This document shows, piece after piece, positions 203 to 20,201 of a DNA stretch of 64,000 nt. Numbering within the stretch: position 1 is the stretch's first letter; every line of letters begins with the position of its first letter. The DNA comes from Candidatus Krumholzibacteriia bacterium (GTDB taxonomy: Bacteria > Krumholzibacteriota > Krumholzibacteriia > Krumholzibacteriales > Krumholzibacteriaceae). The translations under genes were made by a program, and so were the position numbers. The stretch covers positions 960,001-1,024,000 of the forward strand of contig CAWIIQ010000001.1 in the NCBI GenBank assembly GCA_963836185.1. Reading direction: 5' to 3'. The notes beneath the pieces were generated by a model. It saw only the letters and a program-made list of their open reading frames with translations. It did no database searches and had not been told where the DNA came from.

Positions 203-1711
203 CTATAGAGCGTCGATGCTCTCGAGGAGCCTTCGGACCTCTTCGTTGTCGGGGATTATCTCCAGGGATCTGCGCCACCAGGTCTCAGCGCTCGCGTCGC
301 CCATCTCGGCGGCGGCTATACCCCTGTTCTTGAAGAGGTAAGCCTTGAGCTCATCGGGATACGGGGTCGAATCGAATATCGACAGAGCTTCGTCGAGCAG
401 GCCGGCGGCTTCGGCGGGACGTTTCGTGTCGATAAGAAGTCTCCCGAGGTTGTTGTAGGCCGGCATGAAGGCGGGGTCGGTGTCGATCGCCGAGCGCAGG
501 CTGGTCTCGGCGCCCTCGAGATCGTTCTCTTCCCACCTTACCGTTCCCATGTTGTAGAGGGCCTCGGTGTAACCGGGATCTCTGCGCAGCGCTTCACCGA
601 GCAGGGAGTCAGCCTCATCGTAGTCTCCCTCGTTCAATTCGATGATAGCGAGGTTGTTCCAGGGGATCTCCCACATAGGATCGGATATTATCGCGTTCCT
701 GTATTCGAGCTGGGCGCCGGGGATATTTCCCGCGTCCTGGTGTTCCTGGCCGAGGCTGTTGTGGTGCTGCGCGGTCGTACGGTCGCCTTTCGCCGGGGTC
801 CGTGAGAATGCCCACGCGAGGACTGCCGCTATGATGATCAGCGCGGCCGCAGGTATGGCGATCCTGCGCCACAGAGGCGCCGGCGTGTAACCGCCCGCGT
901 TTTCACCCTCTCCCGCAAGGACGGCAAGTTCCGAGGCGAACTCTCCGGCGCTGGCGTATCTCGCGTCGGGATCCTTGGCCAGCGCTCTGTCGACGATGGC
1001 CGCCAGTTCTTCGGGGATCTCCGGGCCCCGGCCCGACAGGGATTCATGCTCCTCGTTCGCGATACTGTACATCACGGCCATCGGATGCGGAGCGTTGAAC
1101 GGGATCTCTCCCGATAGCGCTTCGTAAAGGATCGTCCCGACCGAGAATATGTCGCTTCTCGCGTCGGTCGGCATCCCCGTGGCCTGCTCCGGCGACATGT
1201 ACTGCGCCGTGCCGAGCATCGATACATCGATAGTGATACGGCTTTCAGAGGCGACATGGGCTATACCGAAGTCCATCAGCTTTACCCCTCCATCGGGGCC
1301 GACCATGATGTTATCCGGTTTGAGGTCGCGGTGGATTATCCCTTCGTCATGAAGCCGCTGGAGTGCGGAGAGGATAGCGATCATCCAGCCGGCGGTCTTG
1401 GGCCAATCGACCTGTCCATCTTCCTCTAGTGTTTCGCGGAGCGTCTTTCCCTCGAGGAGCTCCATCGCCATGTAGAAGTCGCCCTCGTGCTCGCCGGCCG
1501 CGTATACTGTCACTATGTTGGGATGATTGATCCTCGAGCAGGCCCGCGCCTCCCTTATGAAGCGTTCCCGGCCCTCATCCCCGATGATCTCCTTGCGCAG
1601 TACCTTTACCGCCAGGTCGCGCTGAAGTGTCTCATCGCGGGCGAGGTACACTATCCCCATACCGCCCTCGCCGAGGGTCTTGACGATCTCAAACTGGGCG
1701 ATCCTGTCCAC
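203..1711 (-). CDS. Hanks-type Ser/Thr protein kinase with a TM helix and C-terminal TPR repeats
   Basis: LGEGGMGIVY, AVKVL, HRDLKPDN, DFG and YMSPE motifs, a hydrophobic helix, then TPRs (YNMG, YNNLG). Start moved to GTG at 1711, after an AAAGGA RBS. Confidence 0.92.
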   Translation of the reverse strand: MDRIAQFEIVKTLGEGGMGIVYLARDETLQRDLAVKVLRKEIIGDEGRERFIREARACSRINHPNIVTVYAAGEHEGDFYMAMELLEGKTLRETLEEDGQVDWPKTAGWMIAILSALQRLHDEGIIHRDLKPDNIMVGPDGGVKLMDFGIAHVASESRITIDVSMLGTAQYMSPEQATGMPTDARSDIFSVGTILYEALSGEIPFNAPHPMAVMYSIANEEHESLSGRGPEIPEELAAIVDRALAKDPDARYASAGEFASELAVLAGEGENAGGYTPAPLWRRIAIPAAALIIIAAVLAWAFSRTPAKGDRTTAQHHNSLGQEHQDAGNIPGAQLEYRNAIISDPMWEIPWNNLAIIELNEGDYDEADSLLGEALRRDPGYTEALYNMGTVRWEENDLEGAETSLRSAIDTDPAFMPAYNNLGRLLIDTKRPAEAAGLLDEALSIFDSTPYPDELKAYLFKNRGIAAAEMGDASAETWWRRSLEIIPDNEEVRRLLESIDAL

Positions 1712-1727
1712 GCGGTCCTTTCGCTCT

Positions 1728-2681
1728 CTACTTCTCGAATATACGGTCGTATTCGGACATCGCCTCGCAGGGGCGCCCCGCCTCGGCGTACAGCCTTGCG
1801 AGGATCGAATGCATCTCCTTCGTCCCGTCGCCATCGACCATCGCCTTCTGCATCTCGGTGATGGCGTCCTCGAGGAGGCCGTGCTCGAAATAGACACTCG
1901 CTCTGAGGAAGTGGTATGTGGAGCCGTTAGGGATCTCTTCCGGATCGATCATGGCTAGTGATTCATCGAGTTTCGCGATCTCTTCTTTCGAGATCACCTC
2001 GAAAAAGGCGGCCGGGCTCCGAAGGGGAGGGACCCGGAGAGGATCGGTAGTCTCAATGGTCCACGAATAGGAGATGCCGGTCTCGAGGGCCGGAGCGCTG
2101 GAAGGGTATTCGTAGATCGACAGGTCCTTTATTCTAGTTTCGTGACAGATCCCCTTTTCATCGTAGATCGTAAGGAGAAGTTCCTCCTTGAGGTCGTTCG
2201 ATACCCATTCGAAAGCCGGGTTGGCGGTAAGTACCTTTGTCTGGCAGGGGGATACGAGGACGATCTCCGATTTGTCAGGAGCCGACCTGAGCGCCGCCAG
2301 AGAGCTTGCTCCCTTGGGGTCCTTCAGGCGCATCATATTCTGAACGACCTTGAAGCTTTCATCGCCGACCTTTATGCCGGACGGCTGCGTTTTGGTCGAT
2401 GCGCTCTTTATCTTCATGCTGCTGCTTGCGCCCACCTGGAGCCACATCCCGTTCTCGAAATGGATCTCGGCGCCGGATTCCACTGAAGTATTCACCTCGT
2501 CGCCGGCGTAGAGCGCCAGCCCGAAGCTTCCCGGTACCTCACCGCCGCTGTTTCTCTCGACAGTGACCTCTCCGGTGCAGGAGAGCAGGATAGCCGCCGG
2601 GATATCCTCACTTGCCGGCGCCTGCCCGGCGAAGATAGACGCAATGGACATAAATATAATGAATAATATGAACTTCCTCAC
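1728..2681 (-). CDS. Secreted protein: FecR-like N-terminus, DUF928-like middle, C-terminal TPR
   Basis: Signal peptide; GEVTVER...LYAGDEVNT...AEIHF FecR-like pattern; LVSP..TKVLT..P.F.W and L..G..YSW DUF928-like pattern. Confidence 0.6.
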   Translation of the reverse strand: MRKFILFIIFMSIASIFAGQAPASEDIPAAILLSCTGEVTVERNSGGEVPGSFGLALYAGDEVNTSVESGAEIHFENGMWLQVGASSSMKIKSASTKTQPSGIKVGDESFKVVQNMMRLKDPKGASSLAALRSAPDKSEIVLVSPCQTKVLTANPAFEWVSNDLKEELLLTIYDEKGICHETRIKDLSIYEYPSSAPALETGISYSWTIETTDPLRVPPLRSPAAFFEVISKEEIAKLDESLAMIDPEEIPNGSTYHFLRASVYFEHGLLEDAITEMQKAMVDGDGTKEMHSILARLYAEAGRPCEAMSEYDRIFEK

Positions 2682-2807: not shown

Positions 2808-3200
2808 CTAATGGAGCCGGGAGTGCATCGACCGCTTTCCCTCTACCGGCCACAGGTTGTGGTGCCATTCGATACAATACGAGATCTGGTCGATATCAAT
2901 CCTGAGGATTCCCCAGTCAAGGGCGGGATGGATGCTCTTCGGATCGGCAAGTCTGGACGGGTCATCAAGTTCGGACACTTTCTGCCTCAACAGGTCGAGA
3001 TTTCCTTCATCGAGGCGTCTTGTGTCCCATATCCTGACCGATAGCGAGACCGAATCCTCTGCCGCCTCCTCAACGGAGTGCACGTAATAGTACATCCCGT
3101 CGACGAGCACCAGCTCGAGGGCAAACGGAGGGATGATGCCCCGGTTGGCGCCGAGGTTCCTGAGGAACGCGTGAAGTGGATCGTGATTCTTCTTTATCAT
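2808..3200 (-). CDS. Hypothetical protein
   Basis: 130-aa ORF with normal composition that fills the gap between genes. Confidence 0.6.
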   Translation of the reverse strand: MIKKNHDPLHAFLRNLGANRGIIPPFALELVLVDGMYYYVHSVEEAAEDSVSLSVRIWDTRRLDEGNLDLLRQKVSELDDPSRLADPKSIHPALDWGILRIDIDQISYCIEWHHNLWPVEGKRSMHSRLH

Positions 3201-3344
3201 CGGGAACAGAATATCCCCTGCTCCGTATATATATCAAATCCTTTTTCGACACCTTGCCGCCGGAAAGGGTTTCTGCTATCGTGGCGGGGCGGTTTTCAGG
3301 GACCGCGTATCCGTTTCATCATCTTTCAACAGAGGGAGAGCTCG

Positions 3345-6300
3345 ATGCTTTCACGTTCCCGTTTCATCATCATGACGGCTCTTGTGCTTGCTGCCGTCAT
3401 TACCTGGCCCTCCGCGGATACAGCCGCGGGAACCCTTTCGGCCAGCCCGGGCGAGGCGCTTCTGCGCTTCCCCGACATCCATGAGGACAAGGTCGTCTTC
3501 GTCAGCGGAGAGGATATCTGGACCGCGCCCGCTTCAGGCGGGACAGCGGTAAGGCTCACGATCCATGACGGGGCAGAGCATTTCCCCAAGTTTTCCCCTG
3601 ACGGCAGCATGATAGCGTTTACCGGCAATTATGACGGAAATGCCGATGTTTACGTTATGAACGCCGATGGAGGCGGTATATCGAGGGTCACGTGGCACCC
3701 TTCATACGACGAGATCGTCGGCTGGCATCCGGTAAACGGCAAGATCATATTCAATTCAGCAAGAGACGCTTTCAACAGGTTCAGCAATCTGTACATGATA
3801 AATCCTGACGGCACCGGCCTGGAGAAACTCATCATGCACGAGGCAGTGCAGGGTTCCTTCTCTCCCGATGGAAAGAAGATCGCCTACAACCGTATCTCCC
3901 GCGAGAACAGGACATGGAAACGTTACAAGGGCGGCACCGCGCAGGAGATCTTCATATTCGATTTTGAGAAGATGGCCGATTCAAAGGTCACCGATTTCAT
4001 CGGTACCGACCGGATCCCGATGTGGATCGGCGACTATATCTACTTCAGCTCCGATCGGGACAGGGTGCTCAATATCTGGCGCCTCGATCCGGCGACCGGG
4101 GAGGCTGAGCAGCTGACGAAGCACACTGAGTACGATATCAGGCGGCCGAGTGATGGCTCCGGAAAGATCGTCTATGAGCTCGGCGGCGATATCTGGATGC
4201 TCGACATCGCTTCCGGCAAGACCGGGAAGATCGAGATCTCGGTAAACAGCGACGCTCCCGAGCTGAGGCCCTACATCAGGGAAGTGGCACGGTATATCAC
4301 CGACATCGATATATCGCCGTCCGGCAAGAGGGCGCTCGTTTCGGCGAGGGGCGAGGTCTTCACCGTGCCGCTCGAGCACGGTCCTACCCGCAACCTCACC
4401 GGCAGCAGCGGCTCGAGGGAGAAAGACGCCGTATGGTCTCCCGACGGTTCGAAGATCGCGTATTTCTCCGATGCGAGCGGAGAGTATGAGATATGGGTCC
4501 GTGGAACGGATTCAGGCGGCGAAGCTAAGAAGCTTACCAGCCACAAGGATGGGTACAGGCACACACTGCGCTGGTCACCCGACAGTAAAAAACTGGCATA
4601 CGCGGATCAGACCCTGCGGTGCTGGTGGATAGATGTAGACTCCGGAAAGAAGACCGAGGTAGACAAGGCCGAGTTCGAGAACATCGACGTTGCTCTCGAG
4701 CTCAAGCCGATTTACGATTTTTCGTGGTCGTCTGACAGCAGGTGGATAACCTACTCGAAGATGAACGCCGACCAGGTAACACAGGTCTACATTTACTCGC
4801 TCGAGACGGGTAAGAGCACGACTGTCAGTAATGGCCTGTTCAACGATTTCAATCCCGTCTTCTCGAAGGACGGGAAGCATCTCTTCTTCATCTCCAACAG
4901 ACGGTTCAATCCGACACTGTGCGATTTCGAGTGGGAGATGGTCTACAAGAAGGTCGCCGGAATCTACGCGGTGACCCTTACTGCAGACGGCGAGGCCCTG
5001 CTGCCCCCGCTAAGCGACGAGGAAAATGCCGCGGCGGAGAAAAACGGGGATGACAAGAAGGACAAGAAGGATGAAAAAAGCGGTGAAGAGCTCGTGAAGA
5101 TCGACTTCGACGGCATCGAGTCGCGTATCGAGGCTCTTCCGGTCGACAGGGCAAACTACAGGGATCTTACCGCGGCTGACGGTGAGCTCTTCTATCTCAA
5201 CAAGGACGAGGGCGATTTCAACAGGTTCGAGTTCCGGGCGATCGGCGCGATGGACCTCTGCTCATTCTCCTTCGATGACAGGGAGGAGAAGAAGGTGATC
5301 TCCGGGATAGGGAGCTACGCGCTCTCGGCCGACGGAAAGAGCATCGTCTACACGAAGAGCCGCGGCATCGGGATCATCAAGTCATCCGAGAAAGATTCAA
5401 AAGGGAACAAGCTCAGCACCTCGGGGCTAAAGATGAAACTCGACCCGCTCGCCGAGTGGAAGCAGATCTTCGCGGAAGCGTGGAGGATGGAGCGCGATTT
5501 CTACTACGAGCCCGAGATGCACGGACTGGACTGGGACGAGATGGGCAGGAAGTACGGGAAGCTGATCGATCGCGCGACATGCCGGCAGGATGTACGGTTT
5601 ATAATCGGCGAGTTGATCGGTGAGCTCAACACCTCTCACACCTACGTATTCGGCGGCGATAACCGCCGCAGCGCAAGCCGTGTCAGCGTAGGGCTGCTCG
5701 GAGTCGACTGGACAATCGATGAAAAGGCCGGGATGTATCGTTTCGAGTAAGATCTACGATGTGTCCGACTGGTCGCGGGGGGTCGTGCCGCCGCTTTCGA
5801 GGCCCGGAGTAAGGGTGGCCGAGGGAGATTACCTGCTCGAGGTCAATGGCGTCGACGTCACTGCCGACAGGAACATATACAGCTGCTTCGAAGATCTTGC
5901 CGGCAAACAGGTGACGATCCTCGTAAACAGCAAGCCGACGAAGAAGGGGGCGAAGAAGTATACGGTCGAGCCTGCCAGGAGCGAATACTGGATGAGGTAT
6001 CACGCCTGGGTCGAACATAACAGGCAGCTTGCCGACAAGATGTCGGGAGGACAGATCGGCTACCTGCACATGCCCGACACATATCTCGGCTCAGCTACTG
6101 AGTTTCCCAAGCTCTTCTACGCCCAGACCCGCAAGAAGGGGATAATACGTAGACGGCCGATTCAACGGCGGCGGACTTGATCCGGCTGTCTTCCTGAACC
6201 GCCTCAACAAGGAGGTCCTTGCCTACTGGACCCGGAGGTACTCTCACGACCAGACCGATCCGGCAGTCGTCACGAACGCTCACCTCGTCTGCCTGACGAA

Positions 6301-6649
6301 CAAGCAGGCAGGTTCGGGAGGAGACATGCTCCCGATGGAGTTCCAGATGATGAAGATGGGGCCGGTCATCGGCACGAGAACATGGGGAGGGCTGGTAGGA
6401 GTCTCGATGTGGATAGGCCTTGTCGATGGCGGCGGGATGTCGGCACCCGACTACAGGATCTACAATCCCGAAGGACGCTGGATAGTCGAGAACGAAGGCG
6501 TCACCCCCGATATCGAGATCGATCTCGATCCGGTAGAGATGTCGAATGGTAATGATGCCCAGCTGCTCAAGGGGATAGAGGTCCTGATGAAAAAGATCGA
6601 GGAGGACCCGAAACCCTGGCCGAAGCATGACAAGTTCAAGCGTCAGTAA
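3345..6649 (+). CDS. Tricorn protease (S41B), interrupted by two +1 frameshifts (~5748, ~6147)
   Basis: Signal peptide, WD40/TolB-like propeller repeats (FSPDG, WSPDG), ELIGELNTSH, a PDZ region, DGRFNGGG, the catalytic AGSGGDM and GVTPDIE, spread over three consecutive frames. Confidence 0.92.
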
Positions 6650-6725: not shown

Positions 6726-7481
6726 TTACAGCCCCGTCGGCAGGTCTATGAAGAACGTCTTCAGCCCCAGCTTCTTTTCCATGAGTTTTCCGAGCGCTTT
6801 GACGCCGAAAGTCTCCGAGGCGTAGTGCCCGGCGAATATCAGGCTGATCCCGTTCTCCCTCGCGACGTGATAGGACGAGTGCGACGTTTCGCCCGTCAGC
6901 AGCGCGTCGCATCCGGCGTCGGCCGCCGCCTGCGTGAGGGAGGCTCCTCCGCCCGAGACGATCCCGATCTTTCTTACCACTGCCGGCCCGAAGGTAAAGG
7001 TCTGCACGGGCGAATCGAGGATGCCGGCGAGCTTGCGGCGCAGCCCCTCGATCTTCATCGGGCGCGGCAGCATCCCGCTGGTGCCTATATCGACACCGGC
7101 ATACTTGCCGAAGCGTTCCGTTTCTCCGATTCCCAGAGCCACGGCGAGCCGGGCGTTGTTTCCTATCTCCCTGTGGCAGTCGAGGGGCAGGTGTGCGGCA
7201 TAGAGGGAGACCTTTCCATCGAGGAGCGCCTTTACACGGGTGGACATGATCCCGGTGATCGGGGGCATGCCGCCCCAGAAAAGTCCGTGATGGACGATGA
7301 GCAGATCGGCCTTGCGGCGTGCAGCCCGGCTTATCGACTCGCGGCAGGCATCGACCGCCAGAGCGACTTTTCTGATCTCTCCCGACGCCTCTACCTGCAG
7401 CCCGTTCATCGACTGGTCCCCTGAGAACGAATCGAGATCCAGGGTCTCCTGGAGAAATCCGGTTACCTTTTCCAGTCTCAT
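6726..7481 (-). CDS. Nif3-like dinuclear metal centre protein (DUF34/YbgI family)
   Basis: NGLQVE, VHHGLFW, AHLPLDCH..GNN, TGE and AGHYASE motifs. Confidence 0.93.
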   Translation of the reverse strand: MRLEKVTGFLQETLDLDSFSGDQSMNGLQVEASGEIRKVALAVDACRESISRAARRKADLLIVHHGLFWGGMPPITGIMSTRVKALLDGKVSLYAAHLPLDCHREIGNNARLAVALGIGETERFGKYAGVDIGTSGMLPRPMKIEGLRRKLAGILDSPVQTFTFGPAVVRKIGIVSGGGASLTQAAADAGCDALLTGETSHSSYHVARENGISLIFAGHYASETFGVKALGKLMEKKLGLKTFFIDLPTGL

Positions 7482-7519
7482 TGAATTCTGCCTTTCATCG
7501 TTCCGCGTGCACGCAGTTC

Positions 7520-8554
7520 TCAACTGCCCTCGCGGGCATCCTTTATCCCCCTGCTTCTCAGCTCGAGTTCATACTTTTTTTCGAGTTCGAGGAGATCCGC
7601 CCTTCCCTTCATCTTTTTTGCCTTCGACCCCGAATCCCTCACCCGGAATCTCGGGTCGCCGGCGGTCCATTCGACTAACACCTCTGTAAGCGATATTCTC
7701 CTGATCCCCGTGTCGACGACCATCGTTTTTCCGGCCATTTCTCCCACAGGCTTGTGATGCTCGCGCTTTCCGTTGATCACGATGTCGATCCCATCGACGC
7801 TTTCTGCCAGCGTAAGGCTGCCGGCCCAGCCCTGGTAGCTCAAGGCCACGATGAGGTCACAGCCTTTCTCCCTGAGGGCGGAAACAGCCGCTAACGCCGC
7901 TATTCTGGGATCGAGCACGTCATAGTACGTAGGGATCTCCGGATCAATCTCCTGTATGAGTGAGGGGAGGGTCACGGAAAAGACCCCGATCTTTAATCCG
8001 CCCTTCACTCCCGTCAGGGTCCTTCTTGCGCCGGCCCTTACAATGGTGTATTCAGCTCCGAGCATCTCACCGGCGCGCTTGTCGTAGATATTGGATGTGA
8101 GCAGCCTGAATCCCGCCTGATCGACTCTATCGAGGAGACGGTCGCGCCCGAACCGGATATCATCGTCACCGATACCGGCTGCCTCGTAACCGATCATCCG
8201 CATTCCCTCGAAGAAATAATCGGTGTCGAACGCGGTGTCTTTTCCCTGCCGGGGATCGCAGAATCCGCCTGCGTCGAGGAGTATCGCCGGATGCTCTGTT
8301 CTTCTCTTGTCGATGAAGGAAGCCCACCTGGCCATCCCGGAATAGAGTTCCTTCTTTCAGCCGCAAGGCTCGCGGTACCCGTTCAGGCCGGCGGTGACGA
8401 AGATGCTCACCTTTGTGCCGTCGACCGGCGGCTCGGAAGGCTCAGTGCGGGCGATATAGATCTTCAACACGATCCAGACCGCGAGCAGAACAAGAAAGAT
8501 CGCGATCATGATCCGTATGAAAGGGGACAACTGATTAGCGGCGTTTCCGCTCAT
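7520..8554 (-). CDS. UshA-like (5'-nucleotidase-fold) putative selenoprotein, membrane-anchored, with Sec at the in-frame UGA 8357-8359
   Basis: ORFs 8357..8554 and 7520..8335 are in the same frame: ...GYREPCG-TGA-KKELYSG-MARW...LLDAGG...SNI. The CxU motif is followed by a hairpin. Confidence 0.82.
8315..8354 (-). promoter_or_regulatory. Candidate bacterial SECIS element
   Basis: Starting 2 nt after the UGA: GAAGGAA...TTCCTTC 7-bp stem, a TCTATT/GGTGGG wobble stem, and an apical CC-GGGAT-GG with a G-led loop. Confidence 0.65.
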
Positions 8555-11500
8555 TGCTCCTGAGGTGGCTGTAGAGTGTAGGTTTCGAGATGCCCAGTAT
8601 CTGGGCTGCCTTTGTCTTGTCTCCGGTCTTTTCGACGACCTTGTTTATCAGTGTCTGCTTCACCCTCGGCAGGATCGGGTCGCTGTCCGAGAACTCGACT
8701 GTATCGAGGAGTGATTCGATCATATCCTCGAGGGTGTTCAGCGACCTCGTCTCGACGCTCTCCCTGTGCTTGACGATATTGACCGGAAGGTCCTCGGGAA
8801 GGATGGTGTCCTTCTTCGAGATGATCATGAGCCGGTTGATCGTATTCTCCAGTTCCCTGACGTTGCCGGGCCAGTCGTACTCGGTCAGGCAGGCCATCGC
8901 CTCGGGTGAGATCCGTTTTGTGGGAGTATTGTACAGGCGGCAGTACATGGTCAAGAAATGGTTGCAGAGGAGTTTGATGTCATCCCTGCGCTCGACCAGT
9001 CCCGGCACCCTGATCGGGAATATGTTGATCCTGTAGTACAGGTCCTCGCGGAACTTTCCTTCCTTGACGAGTTTCATGAGGTCCTTGTTCGTCGCGCAGA
9101 TGACCCTCGCGCTCGTCTTGATCTCACGCGTTCCGCCGACACGGAAGAACCTCATGTCTTCGAGCACGCGCAGAAGCTTCGGCTGCAGTCTCAGCGGGAG
9201 GTCTCCGATTTCGTTCAGAAAGATCGTGCCATCGCTGGCCGATTCGAAATGGCCGACGTTCTGCTTGTACGCGCCGGTGAAGGAACCCTTCTCGTGGCCG
9301 AACAGTTCGCTCTCGATAAGCTGGTCGGGCAGGGCTGGGCAGTTCAGCGTGTGGAACGGCTTGTCCTTTCTCGGGCCCGTATAGTGGAGCGTCTTCGCGA
9401 TAAGGTCCTTTCCCGATCCGTTCGGACCGGTCAGCAGGACGGTCGTATCCAGATCCTTTATGCCGTCAATAAGGTCGTAGATCTTCCTTATCGCCGCCGA
9501 TTTCCCGATGATGTCCTGAAAAGTCACGCGATCGCCGGAGGAGGCCATTATCGAGACATTCTCTCCCAGATGCTCTTTCTGCCTGAGCCTGTCGGAAAGG
9601 AGCATCCTCTCCAGGCCGAGGGCGACCTGCTGGCTGAACGCGACAAGGAAGGTGTGGTCTTCGTCTGTCGTTCCGGCCACTTCACGGCTCGCGTCGAGGT
9701 AGAGATAACCGGTCACTTCTTCGTGTATCCAGAGCGGTGTGCAGATTATACCGGGATGATCGGCAAGGAAGTCTTCCTGTACCTTGCCGGCGGGGATCCT
9801 CGTTCGCGAAATATCGAGTGGATAGCCCAGCTGCCTCGAGATGTTAAGTATCGCGATGATATTCTTGTCGGTCAATATCGCGTCCGAATCGAAATCACCG
9901 ATCGAGGCGAGGATCCTGTACGTATCCTGTCCGTCGCTCTGAAGGATAAGCGCCGCACGTTCCATGCTCGTCATCTTCATCGCCGTCTCGGTGATCGTCT
10001 CGTTCAGCCTGTCAGGATCGTGGATCGTACGTATCAGCGATATCACACGGCAGAGGGCCCTGAACCTCGCCGAATCGGAGTGGATCTTCTCGAGATCGAG
10101 GGCGGTCCTCTCCTCGAGATGTTTCTGAAGATGGGAAACACTGCTCGGGAGCTTCTCCGATTCACCGAACAGAGAGATCGCCCTGAGAAGGTATTCACGG
10201 GCCAGTGATTCGTTTCCTTCCTCGAGATACAGTTCGCCGATCTCGGACGCTACCGAGGCAGCAGTTCCCTTTCTGCCGAGGATCGACAGTTCGAAACTGG
10301 TCTCCTCGAGGATGCGCCGTCCATGTTCGCGCTTTCCTTCAGCGAGCTGAAGCCTTCCGTCCAGCAGGTCGAGAAGAGCTGTCTCGAGCCTCGACCCGAT
10401 CTGATTGTTCAGCTCTCTCGCCTCTGCGAGCAGATCCTTCGTCTCGGTGATCTTTCCTTCGATGAGTCCGAGCTCGCCGAGCCTTCTGAGCACGACCGCC
10501 TTCTCACGAAGCGAGCGCGTCTTCTGGCATATGTGAAGAGCCCTGAAATAGTGGTTTCGCGCCTCAGCATGTTCACCCTTCCTTAAGCGGATCTCGCCGA
10601 GGGTCCCGTAGATCTCCGCGAGCAACTGCTGGTTTCCCAGATCCTCGGCCAGCTTGACAGCTGTCCTGCAGTTCGCGTCGGCTTTCTCGAGTTCCTCGGT
10701 ATCGAGGCAGGCAAGGGCTATGTTGAGATGGACCGCTGCGAGTCCCGGGAGGTTGTTATTGCGCTGCTTTATGCGCATGCTCTTGATGAAACTCTCCAGC
10801 GCCTCCTTGACTCTTCCCATAGAGCGATAAACGAGTCCGAGGTTGTTCAGGCTCGCCGCTACGCCGAGTTCGTCGTTGCAGTCCTCTCGGAGGGCGAGGC
10901 ATTTCTTGTGACAGAGAAGGGCCTCGTCGTACTTGCTCCTGTTCCAGTTGATCGCGCCCATCAGGTTGTATGACTGGGCCAGTTCCATCGGGTGCTGCTT
11001 CTTGTCGAGCAGCTTGTGTACGAGGAGGCAGTTTTCCCATGACATATCGAACTTGCCGAGGCGGTAGTGGACCCAGGCGAGATCATTGTAGAGCTTGGCC
11101 CGCTCCCTTGCCAGCACATGCTCGCCATGCATCTGGATGGCTTTATTAAGAAGTTCCTCCGCGACGATGAACTCGCCTCGTCTCTCGAGTATCTCGCATT
11201 CCTTCCTGATCGCTTCGACGGCGAGCTCCCTGTGGTTCTGCCACCGTTCGCTCGTGCTCGTCTCTTCACGGCAGTTCCTGAAGAATTCCTCGGCTTTGTC
11301 GATCATGCCGATATTCGCGTAGTAATTCCCCAGCTCGAGAAGAAGGTTAAGTCTCATCTCCACGGGAAGGTGCTGGTCGAGACCGAGGCTCATGAACCCG
11401 TCGTTGAAGGAGTTGATCGCGTTGAGGCGCTTGCGGGTCAGGAGGAGCTGGAAGACCCTCAGCCCCTTGAACGCCGCTTCCTGCATGTCGCCGGCCCGCA

Positions 11501-13166
11501 CGAGATGGTAAAAGATATATGCAGCCGGCGCGTTCTGCGCCTCCTTGAGGATCTGGGCGATATTCCTGTGCAGCTGCACGCGCCGCTGAGGGTCGATCGA
11601 TTCCTCTATCATCGAGGCGATACTCTTGCCGCTGATGCTGAAGAGAGTGCAGAGGTCCCCGTCGGCAAAACACGAAATGCGCGCCTTTTTGCGGATGACG
11701 CCCAGTGTGACGAGCCTATGAAGGATCCTGTAGAATCGTCCTTCTTCGGTCGAGAAGATCGCCTTGAGGATAGAGAGAGGTACATCGAATCGAAATACCG
11801 CTATGAAAGAAAGGACCGACTTTTCCTCTTCACTGAGGGAATCTACCACGGTGCCGGCCTTTATGTCGCTGTACGAGGTTTCGGAGGCAAGCCTGACCTT
11901 CAACTCCATGACGGCGAAACTGTCTCTTTCGTCCAGCATCTTTTTCGCGGCCGTCCGGCGGGATTTCGGGAGCAGCTTGAGGACCGATCCGCTTTTACGC
12001 GCGTAATCAAGATCAGGTATCTCGATGTCCGATATCCTGAATCCTTTCTCGGTCCCCTCCGAACGGATCGCGTCGGAGAACCAGGCAGGCGCGTCGTCGC
12101 TCAGGCCTATTACGGCGAGCCTGCTTTTTTCCAGGTCATGAGAGAGCCTGTCGACGATGATTCCGCTGAGGACCTGGTCCTGGTGGTGATCGTCATGTAT
12201 CACGAATCCTGTCCCCGCGATCTCATCGCTTTCAGGGAAATCCATGAAGATGCCCTGGTCGCCTGTCACCCCGTCGCCGTCGAATCCCCATTCCCCGGTA
12301 AGTTTTTCCGCTGTTTCCTCGAGCAGGGATGTTTTGCCCTCGCCTGCCCGTCCGGAAACGATGACCATCTGTTTCCCGTCATCTCTCGATCTGAACGCGG
12401 CCTGCCTTATCAGGCTCATCGCCGCGGAATGGTTTTTCAGCGGCGGTCGGCGGCCGGCCATCACTGAAGGAGCGCCTGACTCTCTTCCTGAAAGCTTGCT
12501 GAGCCTTTCGATCAGTGGGAAGAGGGTTTCGCCCGCCCCGGGGCCGATGTCTCTTAGCTGCTCGGCTGTTTCCGAGCATGCCGCGGAGTCCCCTGCGGGA
12601 AGGTACCTGCAGAGGAGGGCAAGCAGCCGCCCGAAAGCGTTGAGATCGTCGAAGAGATTTTCATCCCCTCCCTGACTTGAAGAAGGATCAAGCCTGTCAA
12701 GCACCGCCTCCGGAACGAGGTAAGCAGTCGGGAGGATGCCGGCTGAATTTCCCCGCATCACGATCGATTCGATGGCCAGATTGTGGAAGAACCGCCCCGC
12801 AGATATGCAGTCGAGAAATGTCGCGGTCAGGGAGCGGGTCAGTTCGAGACTCTCTTCCGGTTTCAGTGATGGAAGCATCTTGGTCACCGGAACGAGATCC
12901 TGCCAGGGAAGAAGAAAGAATACCCCGCTGCCGCTCTCCTGGATAGACAGGGGGCGGAGGTTGTCACCGGCCGCATCGGAAAAGAGGTAATCCCTCATCT
13001 GCAGATCGTCTATTGATATGGATGTCTCGGTGGTGATAACCAGTGAAAAGAGAAGGTAGTCCTTGCCGCTGAGGGAATCAGTGACACCGAATCCCTGCCA
13101 GGGAGGATAGGCGCCGAGCGCCTTCTTGATAGCGTAGCGAGAGGTGAATCCCAGCTCGTTTTCCAT
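8535..13166 (-). CDS. Giant sigma-54-dependent enhancer-binding protein: degenerate kinase-like domain, P-loop NTPase, TPRs, GAF, AAA+ and Fis HTH
   Basis: GRAGEGKT P-loop; TPR run; GAF (ICTPLW...GYLYLD); GPNGSGKD, ESELFGHEKGSFTGA, FLNEIG, FREDLYYRIN and WPGNVREL; AAQILGISKPTLY. Confidence 0.93.
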   Translation of the reverse strand: MENELGFTSRYAIKKALGAYPPWQGFGVTDSLSGKDYLLFSLVITTETSISIDDLQMRDYLFSDAAGDNLRPLSIQESGSGVFFLLPWQDLVPVTKMLPSLKPEESLELTRSLTATFLDCISAGRFFHNLAIESIVMRGNSAGILPTAYLVPEAVLDRLDPSSSQGGDENLFDDLNAFGRLLALLCRYLPAGDSAACSETAEQLRDIGPGAGETLFPLIERLSKLSGRESGAPSVMAGRRPPLKNHSAAMSLIRQAAFRSRDDGKQMVIVSGRAGEGKTSLLEETAEKLTGEWGFDGDGVTGDQGIFMDFPESDEIAGTGFVIHDDHHQDQVLSGIIVDRLSHDLEKSRLAVIGLSDDAPAWFSDAIRSEGTEKGFRISDIEIPDLDYARKSGSVLKLLPKSRRTAAKKMLDERDSFAVMELKVRLASETSYSDIKAGTVVDSLSEEEKSVLSFIAVFRFDVPLSILKAIFSTEEGRFYRILHRLVTLGVIRKKARISCFADGDLCTLFSISGKSIASMIEESIDPQRRVQLHRNIAQILKEAQNAPAAYIFYHLVRAGDMQEAAFKGLRVFQLLLTRKRLNAINSFNDGFMSLGLDQHLPVEMRLNLLLELGNYYANIGMIDKAEEFFRNCREETSTSERWQNHRELAVEAIRKECEILERRGEFIVAEELLNKAIQMHGEHVLARERAKLYNDLAWVHYRLGKFDMSWENCLLVHKLLDKKQHPMELAQSYNLMGAINWNRSKYDEALLCHKKCLALREDCNDELGVAASLNNLGLVYRSMGRVKEALESFIKSMRIKQRNNNLPGLAAVHLNIALACLDTEELEKADANCRTAVKLAEDLGNQQLLAEIYGTLGEIRLRKGEHAEARNHYFRALHICQKTRSLREKAVVLRRLGELGLIEGKITETKDLLAEARELNNQIGSRLETALLDLLDGRLQLAEGKREHGRRILEETSFELSILGRKGTAASVASEIGELYLEEGNESLAREYLLRAISLFGESEKLPSSVSHLQKHLEERTALDLEKIHSDSARFRALCRVISLIRTIHDPDRLNETITETAMKMTSMERAALILQSDGQDTYRILASIGDFDSDAILTDKNIIAILNISRQLGYPLDISRTRIPAGKVQEDFLADHPGIICTPLWIHEEVTGYLYLDASREVAGTTDEDHTFLVAFSQQVALGLERMLLSDRLRQKEHLGENVSIMASSGDRVTFQDIIGKSAAIRKIYDLIDGIKDLDTTVLLTGPNGSGKDLIAKTLHYTGPRKDKPFHTLNCPALPDQLIESELFGHEKGSFTGAYKQNVGHFESASDGTIFLNEIGDLPLRLQPKLLRVLEDMRFFRVGGTREIKTSARVICATNKDLMKLVKEGKFREDLYYRINIFPIRVPGLVERRDDIKLLCNHFLTMYCRLYNTPTKRISPEAMACLTEYDWPGNVRELENTINRLMIISKKDTILPEDLPVNIVKHRESVETRSLNTLEDMIESLLDTVEFSDSDPILPRVKQTLINKVVEKTGDKTKAAQILGISKPTLYSHLRSNERKRR

Positions 13167-13255: not shown

Positions 13256-13600
13256 TTACGTTATAAAGAGGAGCCGGCCGCAGTTCTCGCAGGTGAGAAG
13301 TTCGCTGCTGTATGCGGATGAGAAGAAGGAAGTGGGCAGTTTTGTGAAGCAGCCGAGGCATTTGTCGCCGGTAACAGGGAGAATCGCTACCTTGTAACGC
13401 ACGGCAAGCCTCTCGTAACGATTTTTGAGCGCGACGGGGATCTTCCCGGCAAGCTTGTCACGCCCCTTCTGGAGTTCCTCGAGCCCGTCGAGCTGAAATC
13501 CCATATCCTTGAGCTTTTCGGAGGTCTTCTTTTCCTCGACTTCCTTGATCATGATATCGAGATCCTGCAGAGCGACCAGGAGCTTGAATTCCTCTCTCAT
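13256..13600 (-). CDS. C4-type zinc-ribbon protein (short HP0958/CT398-like)
   Basis: LVALQDLD N-terminus, YERL, CLGC...CENCGRLL. Confidence 0.85.
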   Translation of the reverse strand: MREEFKLLVALQDLDIMIKEVEEKKTSEKLKDMGFQLDGLEELQKGRDKLAGKIPVALKNRYERLAVRYKVAILPVTGDKCLGCFTKLPTSFFSSAYSSELLTCENCGRLLFIT

Positions 13601-14064
13601 TTCCCTTCACCCCCGAGCACAGCCTGAAGGGACTCGAAATTCTTTACCTCGTAAAGCTTTTCGAGAGTCTCCGGCTGCTGAACGAGAGCCGTCAGTTTGC
13701 TGAGAAGGGTGAGATAGGGCTCTGCGCCTTTTTCAGAGGGAGCCAGGATAAGAAAGAATATCCTTGTGGGTTTCCCGTCCAGCGCTTCAAAATCGACCCC
13801 TGATGGTGAGCGCGCGAAGAGAACAGTAAGTTCCGGTATGGCTATAGATCTGCCGTGCGGGAAGGCGACGCCCAGGCCGAGTCCTGTTGATCCCAGGCTC
13901 TCCCGGTTTTTCAGCATCTCTAGGAGAAAACGTTCGTCCGCGATCTTTCCTGACGCCTTAAGGTATCTGACCATCTCCTGAAGGACAGAGGCCTTCTTTT
14001 TTGATCGCAGACTGAAGATGCAGAGGTCTTCCTTGAAGCGTTCAGCGAGCTTGTTTGATCCCAT
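13597..14064 (-). CDS. ptsN: PTS IIA (Ntr/fructose-type) protein
   Basis: RESLGSTGLGLGVAFPHGR and GVDFEALDGKP. Overlaps the next gene by 4 bp. Confidence 0.85.
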   Translation of the reverse strand: MGSNKLAERFKEDLCIFSLRSKKKASVLQEMVRYLKASGKIADERFLLEMLKNRESLGSTGLGLGVAFPHGRSIAIPELTVLFARSPSGVDFEALDGKPTRIFFLILAPSEKGAEPYLTLLSKLTALVQQPETLEKLYEVKNFESLQAVLGGEGK

Positions 14065-14197
14065 ATCCTCTCTTGCTTTCACAGTCAACTCATTCTCTGT
14101 ATAGCAATTTCAACTTTTTTAAACAACAGGTTTTTGCTATCATAGCGAAAATTATTTATTGGCAGAGAGTTACTTTATCGGATACGGCGGCGTAACA

Positions 14198-15289: not shown

Positions 15290-16420
15290 TTGAAAAAGAG
15301 ATTCGAGAGAAGAGGCAAGGTCGTTCTCGCCGAAGCCCTGGCGCCCCTTATCGGCACGCGTGGAAGCGGTGCGCCGCTGCCTGAACCGGGTAATGTCAGA
15401 AGCCTGCTTATCATAAGGCAGCACAACCAGATGGGCGACATGCTCCTTGCCGTCCCCGCGTTCAGGGGTATCAGGAACAGGTTCCCGAACGCGAGGATCA
15501 CACTTCTCGCCGCGTCCATCAACTCCGGCGTGATGCAGAATAATCCCTTTGTCGACGAAGTGATCACCTGGTCGAAGGAGCAGAGCAGGAGAGATCCCCT
15601 GGCCCTGCTGCGCTTCATCCGCGGATTGAGAAGACAGAGGTTCGACGTGTTGATTGTCCTCAATACGGTCTCCTTCTCAGTTACGAGCATGCTTCTCGGC
15701 GCGGTGAGCGGAGCTGCCTGGCGGGCAGGTTCGTCGAGCCTGCCTTTCGGCACCGACCTTACGTCAAGGTACTACCACCTCGAACTGTCTCTTCCAGACG
15801 ATGATGAGCTGGCGCTCATGCACGAGAGTGAGCACAACCTTTATCCACTCCGCGCGCTCGGGATAGACGAATCTGACCTCTCATCCGAGCTCGTGCCATT
15901 TGAATGGGAGGAGAGGGGAAGCAGGGAATTCACGGCAGCGGCTTTCGGTGACGGGCCTTACGCGGTGATCCATCCCGGAGCGGGAAAGGTGCAGAATATC
16001 TGGCCGCCTGAGAGATTCGCGGAGGTATCAGGCGCCCTCCTGGAAAGGTACGGTATCCATTCGGTCGCGGTGCGCGGGCCTGTAGACGACATCTTCTTCG
16101 CGAGGTTTCTCGATGCCTGCGCGGCTTCTCCCCAGGTCATATCCTGCCCGACGGTAGGTTTTCTCGGTGCGCTCATGAGGGACGCGGCAGTCTCTGTATG
16201 CAACGATACGGGAGTGGCGCATATAGCCGGTGCCGTGGGGGCGAGATGCGCCGAGATCTTCGGGCCCACAGATCCGCTCAGGTGGAAGCCGGTCTCCGAC
16301 AACGTGATCGCCGTAAAGCCGCATGACGGTAAGGTCGATTCGGTGACTACTGCTGAGGTGCTGGAAGTCGTAGACGGATTGCTGGCAGGGATCGGTGTTA
16401 CTGGCGCTGGATCAGGTTGA
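15290..16420 (+). CDS. Glycosyltransferase family 9 (heptosyltransferase-like)
   Basis: MGDMLL, HPGAG...WP, NDTGVAHIAGA and FGPTDP. Confidence 0.9.
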   Translation: MKKRFERRGKVVLAEALAPLIGTRGSGAPLPEPGNVRSLLIIRQHNQMGDMLLAVPAFRGIRNRFPNARITLLAASINSGVMQNNPFVDEVITWSKEQSRRDPLALLRFIRGLRRQRFDVLIVLNTVSFSVTSMLLGAVSGAAWRAGSSSLPFGTDLTSRYYHLELSLPDDDELALMHESEHNLYPLRALGIDESDLSSELVPFEWEERGSREFTAAAFGDGPYAVIHPGAGKVQNIWPPERFAEVSGALLERYGIHSVAVRGPVDDIFFARFLDACAASPQVISCPTVGFLGALMRDAAVSVCNDTGVAHIAGAVGARCAEIFGPTDPLRWKPVSDNVIAVKPHDGKVDSVTTAEVLEVVDGLLAGIGVTGAGSG

Positions 16421-18134
16421 TCTTAAGAGAAAGGGTCTCGCTGGCCGGGATATCCACCTCGCCGGTCCACGTGAGATACCCGTGTTTCTTCAACTCGACC
16501 AGATATTTTCCCGCGGCAAGCTGGATCGGGGCCTTCATCGGCGTCGTACCGTGATACGTTCCATTTACAAAGACGCTCGCTCCGGCGATCGTCGTGAAAT
16601 CAAGGCTGCCCGTTACCCTCTGCAGCTCGATCCTTCTGCGCGAGAGCTCGCCCTTCCTGATCACGATCCTTTCGGAGTACTCGATGAATTCGTGCTGTTT
16701 CAGTGTAATATCGTGAGGACCGACGGTGAGTTCCACCGGGCCGAACCTGTCGGTAGAGGCGCGCCAGCGTCCATCGATGTGGATCTCGGCCTCGGGCTCG
16801 ACGTAGATGTCGATCAGCCCGATCGCTGGAACCGGCTCCTCTTGTGCCACGATTTCTTCAGGCACGACGGGCGGTTCCTCTTCTATGACGGCAGCGAGAG
16901 TATCGGGTTCGGGTGCGATACCTTCCGGGGGGCCGGCGGCATGGACGGGATCAACCGCTTCCGCGGTCAATGTCGATGAATCAGGCTCGACGGCGCCTGT
17001 ATCCGCAGCCGAAGTGAACATGCTCTCCATGGTCCCGTTCGGAAGGCCTGAAGCCGGAAGCAGTCCAGCCGGCTTTTCCGATCTGAATCCCTCGATGACA
17101 TTTTCCGCCTTCGTTCGCAGTCCCTGTACTATATCGGGGCGCTCCCAGGCGGTGTATCCCGCCGATATGATGACAGCGGCAGCGGCAATGCCCGTTATCC
17201 ATTTCCTGGCGCTGCCCCGCCTGCGGCGGCGCTGCGGCGTGGACTCGGCCACCGTGACCGCGGGATCTGATCCTCCGGCAAGCCTGCGCAGCCTGTTTCT
17301 CATGGACCAGACCTTTTCCTGGCCGACGCAGGCCTCGATCGTCCTTGCCATCTCCAGGGCGGTCCCGAACCTCTTCGAAGGTTCCCTGCTCAGGGCTTTC
17401 ATGATGATGCAGTCGGTTTCGTTGCATACATTCTCGTTGACCCGGCCGGGTTGCGGTATATGTCCGCCGATGATCCTCTGGATCACCGCGGCATAAGTGT
17501 TTCCGCTGAAAGGCTGCTGCCCTGTCACCATCTCGTAACAGATCGTTCCCAGGGAGAAGATGTCGCTCCGTCCATCGATGCCGTCGCCGATCGCCTGTTC
17601 CGGCGACATGTAAAGCGGTGTTCCCAGCAGTGTGTCCGCGACCGTATGCTGGATCTGGCTGCCGATCAGCTTGGCCAGCCCGAAATCGGTGATCTTCACC
17701 TGGCCGGTCGCAGTGATCATAATATTTGCCGGCTTGATGTCTCTGTGGATTATCCCGTGCTGGTGGGCGTGATCGAGGCCGATGCATATCTCGCGCGCTA
17801 TCAGCAGGGCGAGCTCTTCGTCGATCGGTCCATGCTTCTCGATGATATCGCTGAGCGCGAAACCGTCGATATATTCCATCACTATGAAGTAGTTGCCGTC
17901 TGACATCCCGGAATCGATGATACGTACAATGTTCTCGTGGTCGAGGCTGGCTGCTGCCTTGGCTTCCACCTCGAACCGTCCCGTGAAATTCGTGTCGGAT
18001 GTCAGATGAGAGTGCAGTCTCTTGATCACTACCTCGCGGTCGAGAGATTTCTGGATGGCTTTGTACAGCACTGCGGTGCCGCCGGTCGCGAGGGTGCTCA
18101 GTATCTGGTAGTTTCTTCCTTCCATATCCGTCAT
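16398..18134 (-). CDS. Ser/Thr protein kinase with a TM helix and C-terminal PEGA domains
   Basis: HRDIKPAN, DFGLAK and YMSPEQ; TM helix; PEGA (GASVFVNG..GTTP..L.AG.Y.V.LKK.GY). Start at 18134 overlaps the upstream stop (ATGA). Confidence 0.92.
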   Translation of the reverse strand: MTDMEGRNYQILSTLATGGTAVLYKAIQKSLDREVVIKRLHSHLTSDTNFTGRFEVEAKAAASLDHENIVRIIDSGMSDGNYFIVMEYIDGFALSDIIEKHGPIDEELALLIAREICIGLDHAHQHGIIHRDIKPANIMITATGQVKITDFGLAKLIGSQIQHTVADTLLGTPLYMSPEQAIGDGIDGRSDIFSLGTICYEMVTGQQPFSGNTYAAVIQRIIGGHIPQPGRVNENVCNETDCIIMKALSREPSKRFGTALEMARTIEACVGQEKVWSMRNRLRRLAGGSDPAVTVAESTPQRRRRRGSARKWITGIAAAAVIISAGYTAWERPDIVQGLRTKAENVIEGFRSEKPAGLLPASGLPNGTMESMFTSAADTGAVEPDSSTLTAEAVDPVHAAGPPEGIAPEPDTLAAVIEEEPPVVPEEIVAQEEPVPAIGLIDIYVEPEAEIHIDGRWRASTDRFGPVELTVGPHDITLKQHEFIEYSERIVIRKGELSRRRIELQRVTGSLDFTTIAGASVFVNGTYHGTTPMKAPIQLAAGKYLVELKKHGYLTWTGEVDIPASETLSLKINLIQRQ

Positions 18135-18859
18135 CTCGCGATCGCCAGTCTGGAGGCGAGCGATTCGGGCAGCCCTTCCGCCCTTATCCTTTCCTGTGCT
18201 TCGACTACGTCGTAAGGGATCCTCCGCATGCTTATCCTTCCGCGCTGAACGTCGATGACGGAGAAACTCGACGCGCTGACACCGTCTCTCGGCTGGCCGA
18301 TGCTGCCTGTATTGATCAGGTAGCGGCGGGCCGGGTCGATCTCGAGCTTCGAGCTCGTCTCGACCCTGCATCCCGAAAGATGGTCGTGGCTTATGATCCC
18401 CGGCACATGAGTGTGTCCTATGAAGATAAACTGCGCATCCGTTTCTCTGAATATCCTGTCCGCCTGTGCCATGGTGTAGATGTATTCCCAGTCGATAGGA
18501 GAGACGGGGGAGGAGTGAGCGAAGAGGCATTCTCCGTGGCGTCTGACCGTATCATAGGCTGTGAGGAGTTCCTTCTGTCTCGCTGACAGCGAGTTCTTCG
18601 TCCATTCGATCGATATCCTGGCGGTGACGTTGAAGTTTTCGCTGTCGGCCAGGCCCGCCGCCACAAAATCGTGATTGCCGCAGATGCGTATGTCGCAGTG
18701 CTCGTCGACGAGGTCGACACAGTCCGAAGGACTCGCTCCGTAGCCTACAACATCACCGAGTGAGACTACGAAATCGGGCCTGATCTCGCCGATCTCTTCC
18801 ACGAGCGTCTCGAGCGCCTGTGCGTTGCCGTGAATATCTGAGAATATGAGGTACTTCAT
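18131..18859 (-). CDS. Calcineurin-like metallophosphoesterase (putative Ser/Thr phosphatase)
   Basis: SDIHGN, LGDVVGYG, GNHD, GHTH and NTGSIGQPRDG. Confidence 0.92.
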   Translation of the reverse strand: MKYLIFSDIHGNAQALETLVEEIGEIRPDFVVSLGDVVGYGASPSDCVDLVDEHCDIRICGNHDFVAAGLADSENFNVTARISIEWTKNSLSARQKELLTAYDTVRRHGECLFAHSSPVSPIDWEYIYTMAQADRIFRETDAQFIFIGHTHVPGIISHDHLSGCRVETSSKLEIDPARRYLINTGSIGQPRDGVSASSFSVIDVQRGRISMRRIPYDVVEAQERIRAEGLPESLASRLAIAR

Positions 18860-18863
18860 TATA

Positions 18864-20201
18864 TCAGTGCTTGAAGACGAATTCTTCCGAGCCGATGGCT
18901 ATCAGGTCCTCTTCCTGCAGGACCTTCTCCTCCATCTTCTCGCCATTAACCCTGACGGACTTCTTCCCGTCCGCTTCCATGACCCAGTCCGGTCCGCACT
19001 TGTGGATGTTCACCTTCACGCGCGGAGCGAAGAGCCCCTTCAACCTTATGTCCGATTCTCTGCCTCTGCCGATCACGAGACTGTTGCCCTCTATCGGGTA
19101 TTCCTCCTGCTCGCTGCGGCGGTAAAGCCTGGGGAAAGTCTCTTCGTCGATAACGGCACTTTCCTGCTTCGGACAGTTTTCGCTGTGGAATCTCGGTATG
19201 ATAACGGTCTGATCGAGAGTGTCAGAGGTGCCTTCCTCGCCGGTCGTGACCTGGAAAGCGATCTCGTACTTGCCTATGGAAATGGCGTCTCCGCCATGCA
19301 GTTCGCCCTGTTCGACCTTTTCGCCGTTGAGAAGCGTTCCGTTCTTGCTGCCCAGGTCGCGTATGACATAACCGGACCTGACGGAATGGATGACCGCGTG
19401 CTTTCTCGAGACGCTGAGGTTGTCTATCACGATGTCGTTTTCGGGCAGTCTTCCGATCGTGATCTGTTTTCCTGTGAAGTTGTATGTCTTCAGCGGCCTG
19501 TTCTTCAGCTTGACTATCAGCTTCGGGGGCTGGCTGAGGAAGAACGACGTGACCGGGCCCTCGTAGTCCCCGGGGATCTGACGTGAATCCTCGGAATGTT
19601 TTACGACGAGTTCGGTAAATATCCTTATCTCGAAGGGAGCCCTGGTGGCCATCGTGTAGACCTTGACCAGAAAATCCTCCCGCCTGCTCGTCTCACCCGA
19701 CATCCCGGTGTTGAGGCCGTGATAGCATGCCGCCGGAATACCTTCCTTGTATCTGAGCATTACGAGGTTGCCTGGCTGCAGTGCGGATACCAGCGCGTTG
19801 CGTTTCTCGGATTCTATCCTGTCGAGGAGCTCGTCGAGGTCAACGAGGGTCGAGCTGACCTTGAGCTCGGGTTTCGTCTGGAGGTAGACGATCAGGGAAT
19901 GGAAGAGCAGAAGGTTGACCGAGTAGACGATCACCTTGGGGAACTGGGTCCTGCGCAGCGAGGAGAAACACTCCCTCACTGAGAGGCCGGCAAAGCCGCC
20001 CGGGTCACTCGAGCAGCACCAGTAGACCTGGCCATCCCTGATGAATGTGAGATACTGGACATGATCGTTAAAGACCTCGATGACGACAGGGTCCACGCCC
20101 TTGTCTGCGAGATGCTTCTTCAGGACCGAATCGAAACGATCGGGATCGTAATCGGTCGGGTCCATAAGTACGCTGGTATATGGTATCTGAAGCCTCGACA
20201 T
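18864..20201 (-). CDS. FHA-domain protein (unknown N-terminal domain plus two FHA domains)
   Basis: IGRLPENDI...VSRKHA...DLGSKNGTLLNG. A second, degenerate FHA reads IGRGRESDI...VRVNG...D.I.IG. Confidence 0.9.
   Translation of the reverse strand: MSRLQIPYTSVLMDPTDYDPDRFDSVLKKHLADKGVDPVVIEVFNDHVQYLTFIRDGQVYWCCSSDPGGFAGLSVRECFSSLRRTQFPKVIVYSVNLLLFHSLIVYLQTKPELKVSSTLVDLDELLDRIESEKRNALVSALQPGNLVMLRYKEGIPAACYHGLNTGMSGETSRREDFLVKVYTMATRAPFEIRIFTELVVKHSEDSRQIPGDYEGPVTSFFLSQPPKLIVKLKNRPLKTYNFTGKQITIGRLPENDIVIDNLSVSRKHAVIHSVRSGYVIRDLGSKNGTLLNGEKVEQGELHGGDAISIGKYEIAFQVTTGEEGTSDTLDQTVIIPRFHSENCPKQESAVIDEETFPRLYRRSEQEEYPIEGNSLVIGRGRESDIRLKGLFAPRVKVNIHKCGPDWVMEADGKKSVRVNGEKMEEKVLQEEDLIAIGSEEFVFKH

Follow-up and report, generated by a model that had tools for sequence, protein, structure and literature searches.

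On the minus strand of the window, the 64,000-nucleotide stretch of a Candidatus Krumholzibacteriia genome analysed here, a 65-aa open reading frame (8554–8357) ends in EPCG followed by TGA, and a 271-aa frame (8335–7520) continues in the same frame. Does this TGA terminate a short peptide, or is it decoded as selenocysteine (Sec) within a longer gene? Translation of the window's frames with TGA as U yields a product of 344 residues with U66, and comparison with related sequences argues that the codon is almost certainly read as selenocysteine in one 344-aa protein. The full gene (7520–8554, minus strand; 344 codons plus stop) is annotated here with UGA as Sec at codon 66 and with its start at the position conserved in orthologues. 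An earlier note on this DNA had proposed a single product of about 344 residues; the two frames do lie in one frame, and the orthologues share this organisation. The corrected gene is the main gain of the analysis; throughout one bacterial order, the existing gene model breaks off at the UGA.

A strong orthologue match occurs in 35 of 61 related genomes, with an internal TGA in every one. All 30 fetched orthologue loci carry TGA at column 66 (8357–8359, minus strand) and Cys two codons earlier (Cys64 of the CxU motif; 8363–8365, minus strand), and a CxC paralogue has a Cys codon at column 66 in each of its 30 copies. The stop at codon 66 is never TAA or TAG among these orthologues; their terminal stops vary (TGA in 16, TAG in 8, TAA in 6). 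Named genome records, a set that overlaps the fetched orthologues and is not independent of them, have TGA in 33 of 34 loci, the remaining locus ending at a contig edge. Changes fall mostly at third codon positions on both sides of the UGA in all six same-genus comparisons. Because the column is shared by all 30 orthologues together with Cys64, it represents neither an indel nor a sequencing slip, as the earlier note had held for this break. That note had also expected Cys or UGA here in an alignment of homologues; besides the 30 orthologues with UGA and the 30 CxC paralogues with Cys, 56 distant domain rows carry Cys. No direct orthologue was found in which Cys replaces Sec.

Five close metagenome loci comprise four with TGA and one with sense codons at both motif positions. 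Contigs of three sequencing runs span the UGA without a difference among the rows listed; they come from relatives at low depth and are not counted as support. The sequencing runs listed include none of RNA. One orthologue (L104:6001-6936) has lost the first Cys but not the UGA, and its next loop contains two Cys; orthologues of genus g2 possess one extra Cys in the loop after CxU. A profile match at E ≤ 1e-40 is found in 36 of 151 genomes of the phylum, all from the window's order, and in none of 111 genomes from six other families of the phylum; the named records of close relatives mostly belong to Candidatus Krumholzibacteriota.

In the source genome selA and selD score over the cut-off, selD itself containing an in-frame TGA, and there is a tRNA-Sec whose anticodon is UCA. 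Its selB lies in several frameshifted pieces (G000:C1:47922-49803); the gene is intact in all five relatives tested (four of its own genus, the fifth of another family), so the frameshifts likely arose from assembly error. In 60 of 61 related genomes selA is over the cut-off. Sec decoding in this lineage had been put forward as an implication to be checked through selA, selB, selC and selD, and all four genes are found, selB being broken here and whole in the five relatives. A general reassignment of UGA is ruled out: TGA is the commonest stop in the genome (668 of 1232 long stop-free frames), and the sole tRNA-Trp has a CCA anticodon. The proposal that this UGA encodes Sec agrees with the conserved column, the Cys of the paralogue and the Sec genes of the genome.

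A hairpin starting 2 nt after the UGA had been suggested as the SECIS. Such a hairpin exists (8315–8354, minus strand) and is the minimum-energy fold of the source sequence, with pair probabilities of about 0.99, but it is not conserved: across orthologues 74% of cells pair, and two closing pairs are broken in 18 and 21 of the 30. Its stability is at the level of shuffled sequences (z of −0.02 to −0.83 in three windows and +0.65 in a fourth) and it is not the element that tracks the UGA in paralogues, so we reject it in this role. The SECIS is likely a shorter, more distal hairpin (8317–8338, minus strand; +19 to +40), judged by conservation, folding and consensus fit, which overlaps the long one and competes with it, the two being mutually exclusive. 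Its stem has eight pairs and a bulged U, its apical loop carries GG at +29/+30, and 94.6% of its cells are paired over the orthologue set. The stem hardly varies, with one-sided changes at three pairs and no two-sided compensatory change, and its covariation score among the 30 orthologues is not above that of shuffles. The four most constrained of 70 fourfold-degenerate sites (codons 79, 75, 73 and 78) all lie inside this hairpin, and the Arg76 codon ends in GG in every orthologue. A ribosome would cover the first 11 bases after the UGA; with these removed, the upper stem forms in 28 of 30 orthologues. The bacterial SECIS consensus in the part of PMC13188914 consulted (loop of 3–9 nt, G among its first two bases, stem of 4–16 bp, 16–37 nt from the UGA, energy ≤ −7.5) agrees with the short hairpin, which has a loop of 5 nt (3 if the closing pair forms), G in second place, 8 pairs, a spacing of 27 nt and −8.6 kcal/mol.

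The Cys paralogue offers a built-in control by which the position of the candidate SECIS can be pinned. Among the 30 orthologues, 29 have a loop opened by GG at +29/+30; the UGA paralogue has it in 23 of 28 parsed copies and the Cys paralogue in 1 of 30. An Arg codon ending in GG stands there in 30/30, 28/28 and 12/30, respectively; these are counts rather than a statistical test, as kin are not independent, and the tally for the heme-bearing UGA paralogue omits two of its 30 loci, which were unparsed. An orthologue without the motif (L054) retains the hairpin unchanged. A genome-wide scan for UGA followed by a +29 GG loop gave 240 candidates among 116,140 TGA positions; selD was absent from them, and this unspecific scan was not used.

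Two paralogues accompany the gene in the source genome, one with UGA and four CxxCH motifs and one with CxC. The former, a second UshA-like UGA gene (L053; G000:C1:1044289-1045674), has an xGU motif without the first Cys and a lipoprotein-type signal; it scores 199.5 bits on NF041198, below the cut-off, and has matches in 59 of 61 genomes. Since the first Cys is missing from all 28 parsed copies of this heme-fused form, a resolving Cys is not universal. The third paralogue (L052; G000:C6:5252-6223) is stand-alone, with CxC and no SECIS, and has Cys in all 30 fetched copies. The resulting comparison set holds three versions (anchored CxU, xGU with four hemes, and CxC) along with natural motif-less alleles. 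A genome of the same class contains two further near-identical UshA-like UGA genes with CCxU (L219 and L220, on G052:C73 and C74).

A wide domain search gave 16,848 matches at E ≤ 0.001, of which the best 150 were listed; 203 domain rows from 155 proteins were parsed. Among these rows, 56 have CxC without GNH, 97 have GNH without CxC, and 50 have neither, many of the latter being incomplete; 19 of the 56 CxC rows, still counted within the best of the 16,848 matches, belong to proteins bearing CxxCH. The clean split between CxC and GNH makes the CxC/CxU class look like a branch of the nucleotidase fold that traded hydrolysis for a thiol/selenol loop. In two database proteins (P0056 and P0102) Trp takes the place of Sec, probably because a gene caller using a different genetic code translated a UGA there; P0056, also a stand-alone protein with an anchor, is perhaps the closest outside relative.

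The protein begins with a predicted signal anchor (residues 12–30; 8465–8521, minus strand; mean hydropathy 2.95), likely oriented N-in and C-out according to K/R counts, which lies in a long helix (residues 11–37) of the structure model. This hydrophobic helix is present in all 30 orthologues, in agreement with the N-terminal membrane anchor proposed before. K/R residues are more frequent before than after the helix in 17 of the 30 and equal in 6, with means of 3.3 on the N-terminal side and 2.2 on the far side; the window copy has 0 before and 2 after. The N-terminus being more basic on average, the sequences suggest an outward-facing domain, with weak support in the window's own genus.

Residues from about 47 to 338 (7541–8416, minus strand) are predicted by profile, model and alignment to adopt the 5′-nucleotidase/UshA N-terminal (calcineurin-like) fold with a degenerate site. 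The structure model (pLDDT 88) matches the N-terminal domain of 5′-nucleotidases, CpdB and SoxB, and aligns with E. coli 5′-nucleotidase at Z 29.4 and an rmsd of 2.7 Å over 279 residues. No C-terminal substrate-binding or heme domain and no CxxCH is found in the 344-aa protein, and no Pfam family matches the read-through product at E ≤ 0.001, a loose threshold giving one weak match to the anchor. For calcineurin-like phosphoesterases we take the motif names to be DxH, GD, GNH, H and GHxH, their positions being mapped here by alignment to YfkN. Among the 30 orthologues, the motif I Asp is kept in 3 (Glu in 14) and the motif I His in 2, the Asn and His of GNH in none, the motif II Asp in 16 and the motif IV His in 19. 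The window copy has G56/N58, G97, D130/D131, Y240 and K263/E265 at these positions and departs from the motifs of active phosphoesterases. By alignment and model, this is a nucleotidase fold devoid of most metal and catalytic residues. The CxU motif sits six to ten residues past motif I, and Asp94 (30/30), His266 (28/30) and, less often, Cys99 (18/30) are conserved around it in the orthologue sequences.

A redox role outside the membrane is suggested by the loss of the hydrolase site, by the conservation of CxU and by how often the domain is fused to c-type hemes. We hypothesize, with about even confidence on the strength of sequence and model, that Sec recoding yields an outward-facing, membrane-anchored Cys-Gly-Sec redox protein. 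The recoding part of this scheme is nearly certain: the short hairpin would form after the ribosome melts the longer competing one, and SelB carrying Sec-tRNA would bind it at +19 to +40. The chemistry is proposed a little more tentatively: Sec66, on the loop just past the first vestigial metal motif, would attack an S–S bond, either in a sulfur compound or in a disulfide of a protein; Cys64 would resolve the adduct to give a selenenylsulfide, and an outside electron donor would re-reduce it, a task that in the paralogue could fall to the fused four-heme domain. A purely redox role does not explain why orthologues without CxU keep the gene.

The genomic context is conserved as well. A 1543-aa sigma54 activator is encoded upstream with a 20-nt overlap (8535–13166, minus strand), and in the single fetched locus without an adjacent activator there are only 64 nt of flank. 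Downstream lies a Nif3/DUF34 gene (6726–7523, minus strand; probably starting with the ATG at 7481), which adjoins the UGA gene in 25 of 30 loci. The conserved run that these genes belong to opens with a PTS EIIA-like gene and a C4 zinc-ribbon gene (13256–14088, minus strand). The activator has a kinase-fold N-terminal domain followed by an AAA/STAND-like region, TPRs and GAF, and is conserved across the order. Its first 210 residues resemble a Ser/Thr kinase (Foldseek E 3.7e-7, TM about 0.6); none of the Pfam models detects this domain, and in the alignment it lacks catalytic motifs at the positions we presume from general kinase patterns. The activator and the UshA-like domain are predicted to reside in different compartments. 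Among the neighbouring genes examined, no heme or other electron-transfer gene adjoins the UGA gene. Two Ser/Thr kinase genes (bearing TPR and PEGA domains) and an FHA-domain gene lie nearby (window 203–1897, 16398–18530 and 18864–20201). A tricorn protease gene (3078–6649, plus strand) is in pieces in three reading frames, likely through assembly indels, and the frame at 6095–6628 (minus strand), considered as a conserved neighbour, is rejected as an antisense shadow of it.

An oddity of the finding is that several relatives keep the gene after losing the whole selenium motif. In family f3, all six fetched syntenic copies lack CxU, lie beside the activator and keep the anchor; against the consensus, their anchor retains 52–65% identity (mean of Sec-bearing copies 62%) and their motif region 14–31% (77%). 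The same family retains selA in 8/8 genomes (7 over the cut-off) and the UGA paralogue in 8/8. On a quick tree, built with the motif columns left in and supported by SH-aLRT only, the 13 motif-less rows are placed at four separate points. All seven motif-less copies with DNA examined are beside the activator, gene order covering the f3 loci and L054 and excluding P0003, P0022, P0048 and P0057. From these sequences, CxU is lost outright about four times and is never converted to CxC; the losses fit either another role that needs no selenium or a gradual decay of the gene within a conserved operon.

This pattern bears on the foremost alternative, which we regard as possible though clearly less probable than the redox protein: Sec is inserted, and the product, coupled to the sigma54 activator, works mainly as a membrane partner without catalytic activity or as a redox sensor, with a CxU that tunes it and can be dropped. 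Such a role would suit the activator's position next to the gene, found in 29 of 30 loci and in all six fetched f3 loci without CxU, a preserved f3 anchor above a diverged motif region, the retention of selA and the UGA paralogue in f3, and the scatter of motif-less rows over four places of the tree. However, no membrane domain is predicted in the activator, and the UshA-like protein extends into the cytoplasm by a variable tail of about 10 residues, which leaves no visible route across the membrane; Nif3, zinc ribbon and EIIA are conserved in the same run, and adjacency may be operon inertia; and the motif-less copies sit on long branches, which fits slow decay.

An unlikely alternative has Sec inserted and CxU, together with Asp94 and His266, binding a soft metal or a metal cluster on the outer side of the membrane, to store or traffic it and not for redox turnover. 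The conservation of Asp94, His266 and, in part, Cys99 agrees with it, as does the downstream Nif3, a metal-centre protein by family name; yet the canonical ligands vary freely among orthologues, and the heme fusions of related proteins point toward electron transfer. Still more doubtfully, we speculate on a selenium-optional signalling module, in which an anchored pseudo-phosphoesterase would read the outside redox or sulfur state through its Cys-Sec loop and control the pseudokinase-STAND-TPR-GAF sigma54 activator via the anchor. If true, this would make a selenoprotein the sensor of a transcription system and would account for the survival of the gene through repeated CxU loss. A working metallophosphoesterase with Sec in place of lost ligands is very improbable: the whole fold is kept, with the motif II Asp and motif IV His in about half or more of the orthologues, but the window copy has no ligand of motifs I, II, III or IV, GNH is absent throughout, and the substrate-binding domain of UshA is missing. 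The least probable reading, a true stop that divides a membrane peptide of 65 residues from an independent 271-aa protein starting at Met74, or a pseudogene, can draw on Met74 being kept in 29 of 30 orthologues, on databases carrying the 271-aa form and on the broken selB of the source assembly, but it is opposed by a column that is never TAA or TAG, by the loss of the first core strand (residues 48–54 of the structure model) from the 271-aa piece, by natural full-length forms with a sense codon, and by a hairpin that tracks the UGA among paralogues.

The anchored Cys-Gly-Sec redox protein that we favour can be set against known families. UshA-like CxU selenoproteins appear in the portion of PMC2398784 consulted (COG0737 'UshA-like', 76 sequences from ocean samples) and in that of PMC9312934; the consulted part of PMC13188914 lists the kind with NCBIfam NF041198 (UshA_like_PCGU) and, as CxxU, NF049981 (UshA-like (seleno)protein family 2). 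Within its reach, which took in few subscription journals and no supplementary files, our literature search turned up no functional work on UshA-like selenoproteins and nothing on selenoproteins of this lineage. The kind has been listed since 2008, and the comparison set described here could help to address its function.

Kinship with these proteins had been stated in the earlier note, and it holds: the window protein has a COG0737-type fold and a CxU near its N-terminus, and its best NCBIfam match is NF041198 (E 3.4e-29, model positions 4–294). Shared features are the UshA N-terminal fold, PCG-UGA past the first metal motif and a G-x-A-R-R/W-A helix encoded under the SECIS. Unlike the NF041198 kind, the protein scores 101.8 bits against a cut-off of 275 (three other orthologues reach 89–132 bits) and spans the first 294 of 519 model positions; positions 352–519 match the multiheme domain of the paralogue, whereas the 344-aa protein has no CxxCH. 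Its anchor looks uncleaved, in contrast to the lipoprotein-type signals of the paralogues, and at E ≤ 1e-40 the subfamily is confined to one order among the 151 genomes of the phylum. With NF049981 it shares the stand-alone size and a weak N-terminal match (E 8.4e-5), but the score is 22.1 bits against a cut-off of 140 and the motif here is CxU. The family itself is already known, and the protein falls below the cut-off of both NCBIfam equivalogs.

Among enzymes, the N-terminal metallophosphoesterase domain of UshA, CD73, CpdB and SoxB is close in structure (Z 26–29, rmsd 2.5–3.6 Å; profile E down to 1.2e-23), whereas the window protein lacks the dimetal ligands, the catalytic His and the C-terminal domain and possesses CxU. 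For the heme-fused paralogue, a chemical model is provided by MccSep, a multiheme polysulfide reductase selenoenzyme of Geobacter, in which, according to the part of PMC13510729 consulted, Sec attacks polysulfide beside a heme. The likeness of a Sec nucleophile combined with c-type hemes is an analogy, with no homology claimed; unlike MccSep, the window protein has no heme, and UshA is absent from the main text of PMC13510729 as far as consulted. On sequence grounds, the protein described here represents a subfamily without heme among the known UshA-like CxU selenoproteins, belonging to one order of Candidatus Krumholzibacteriota.
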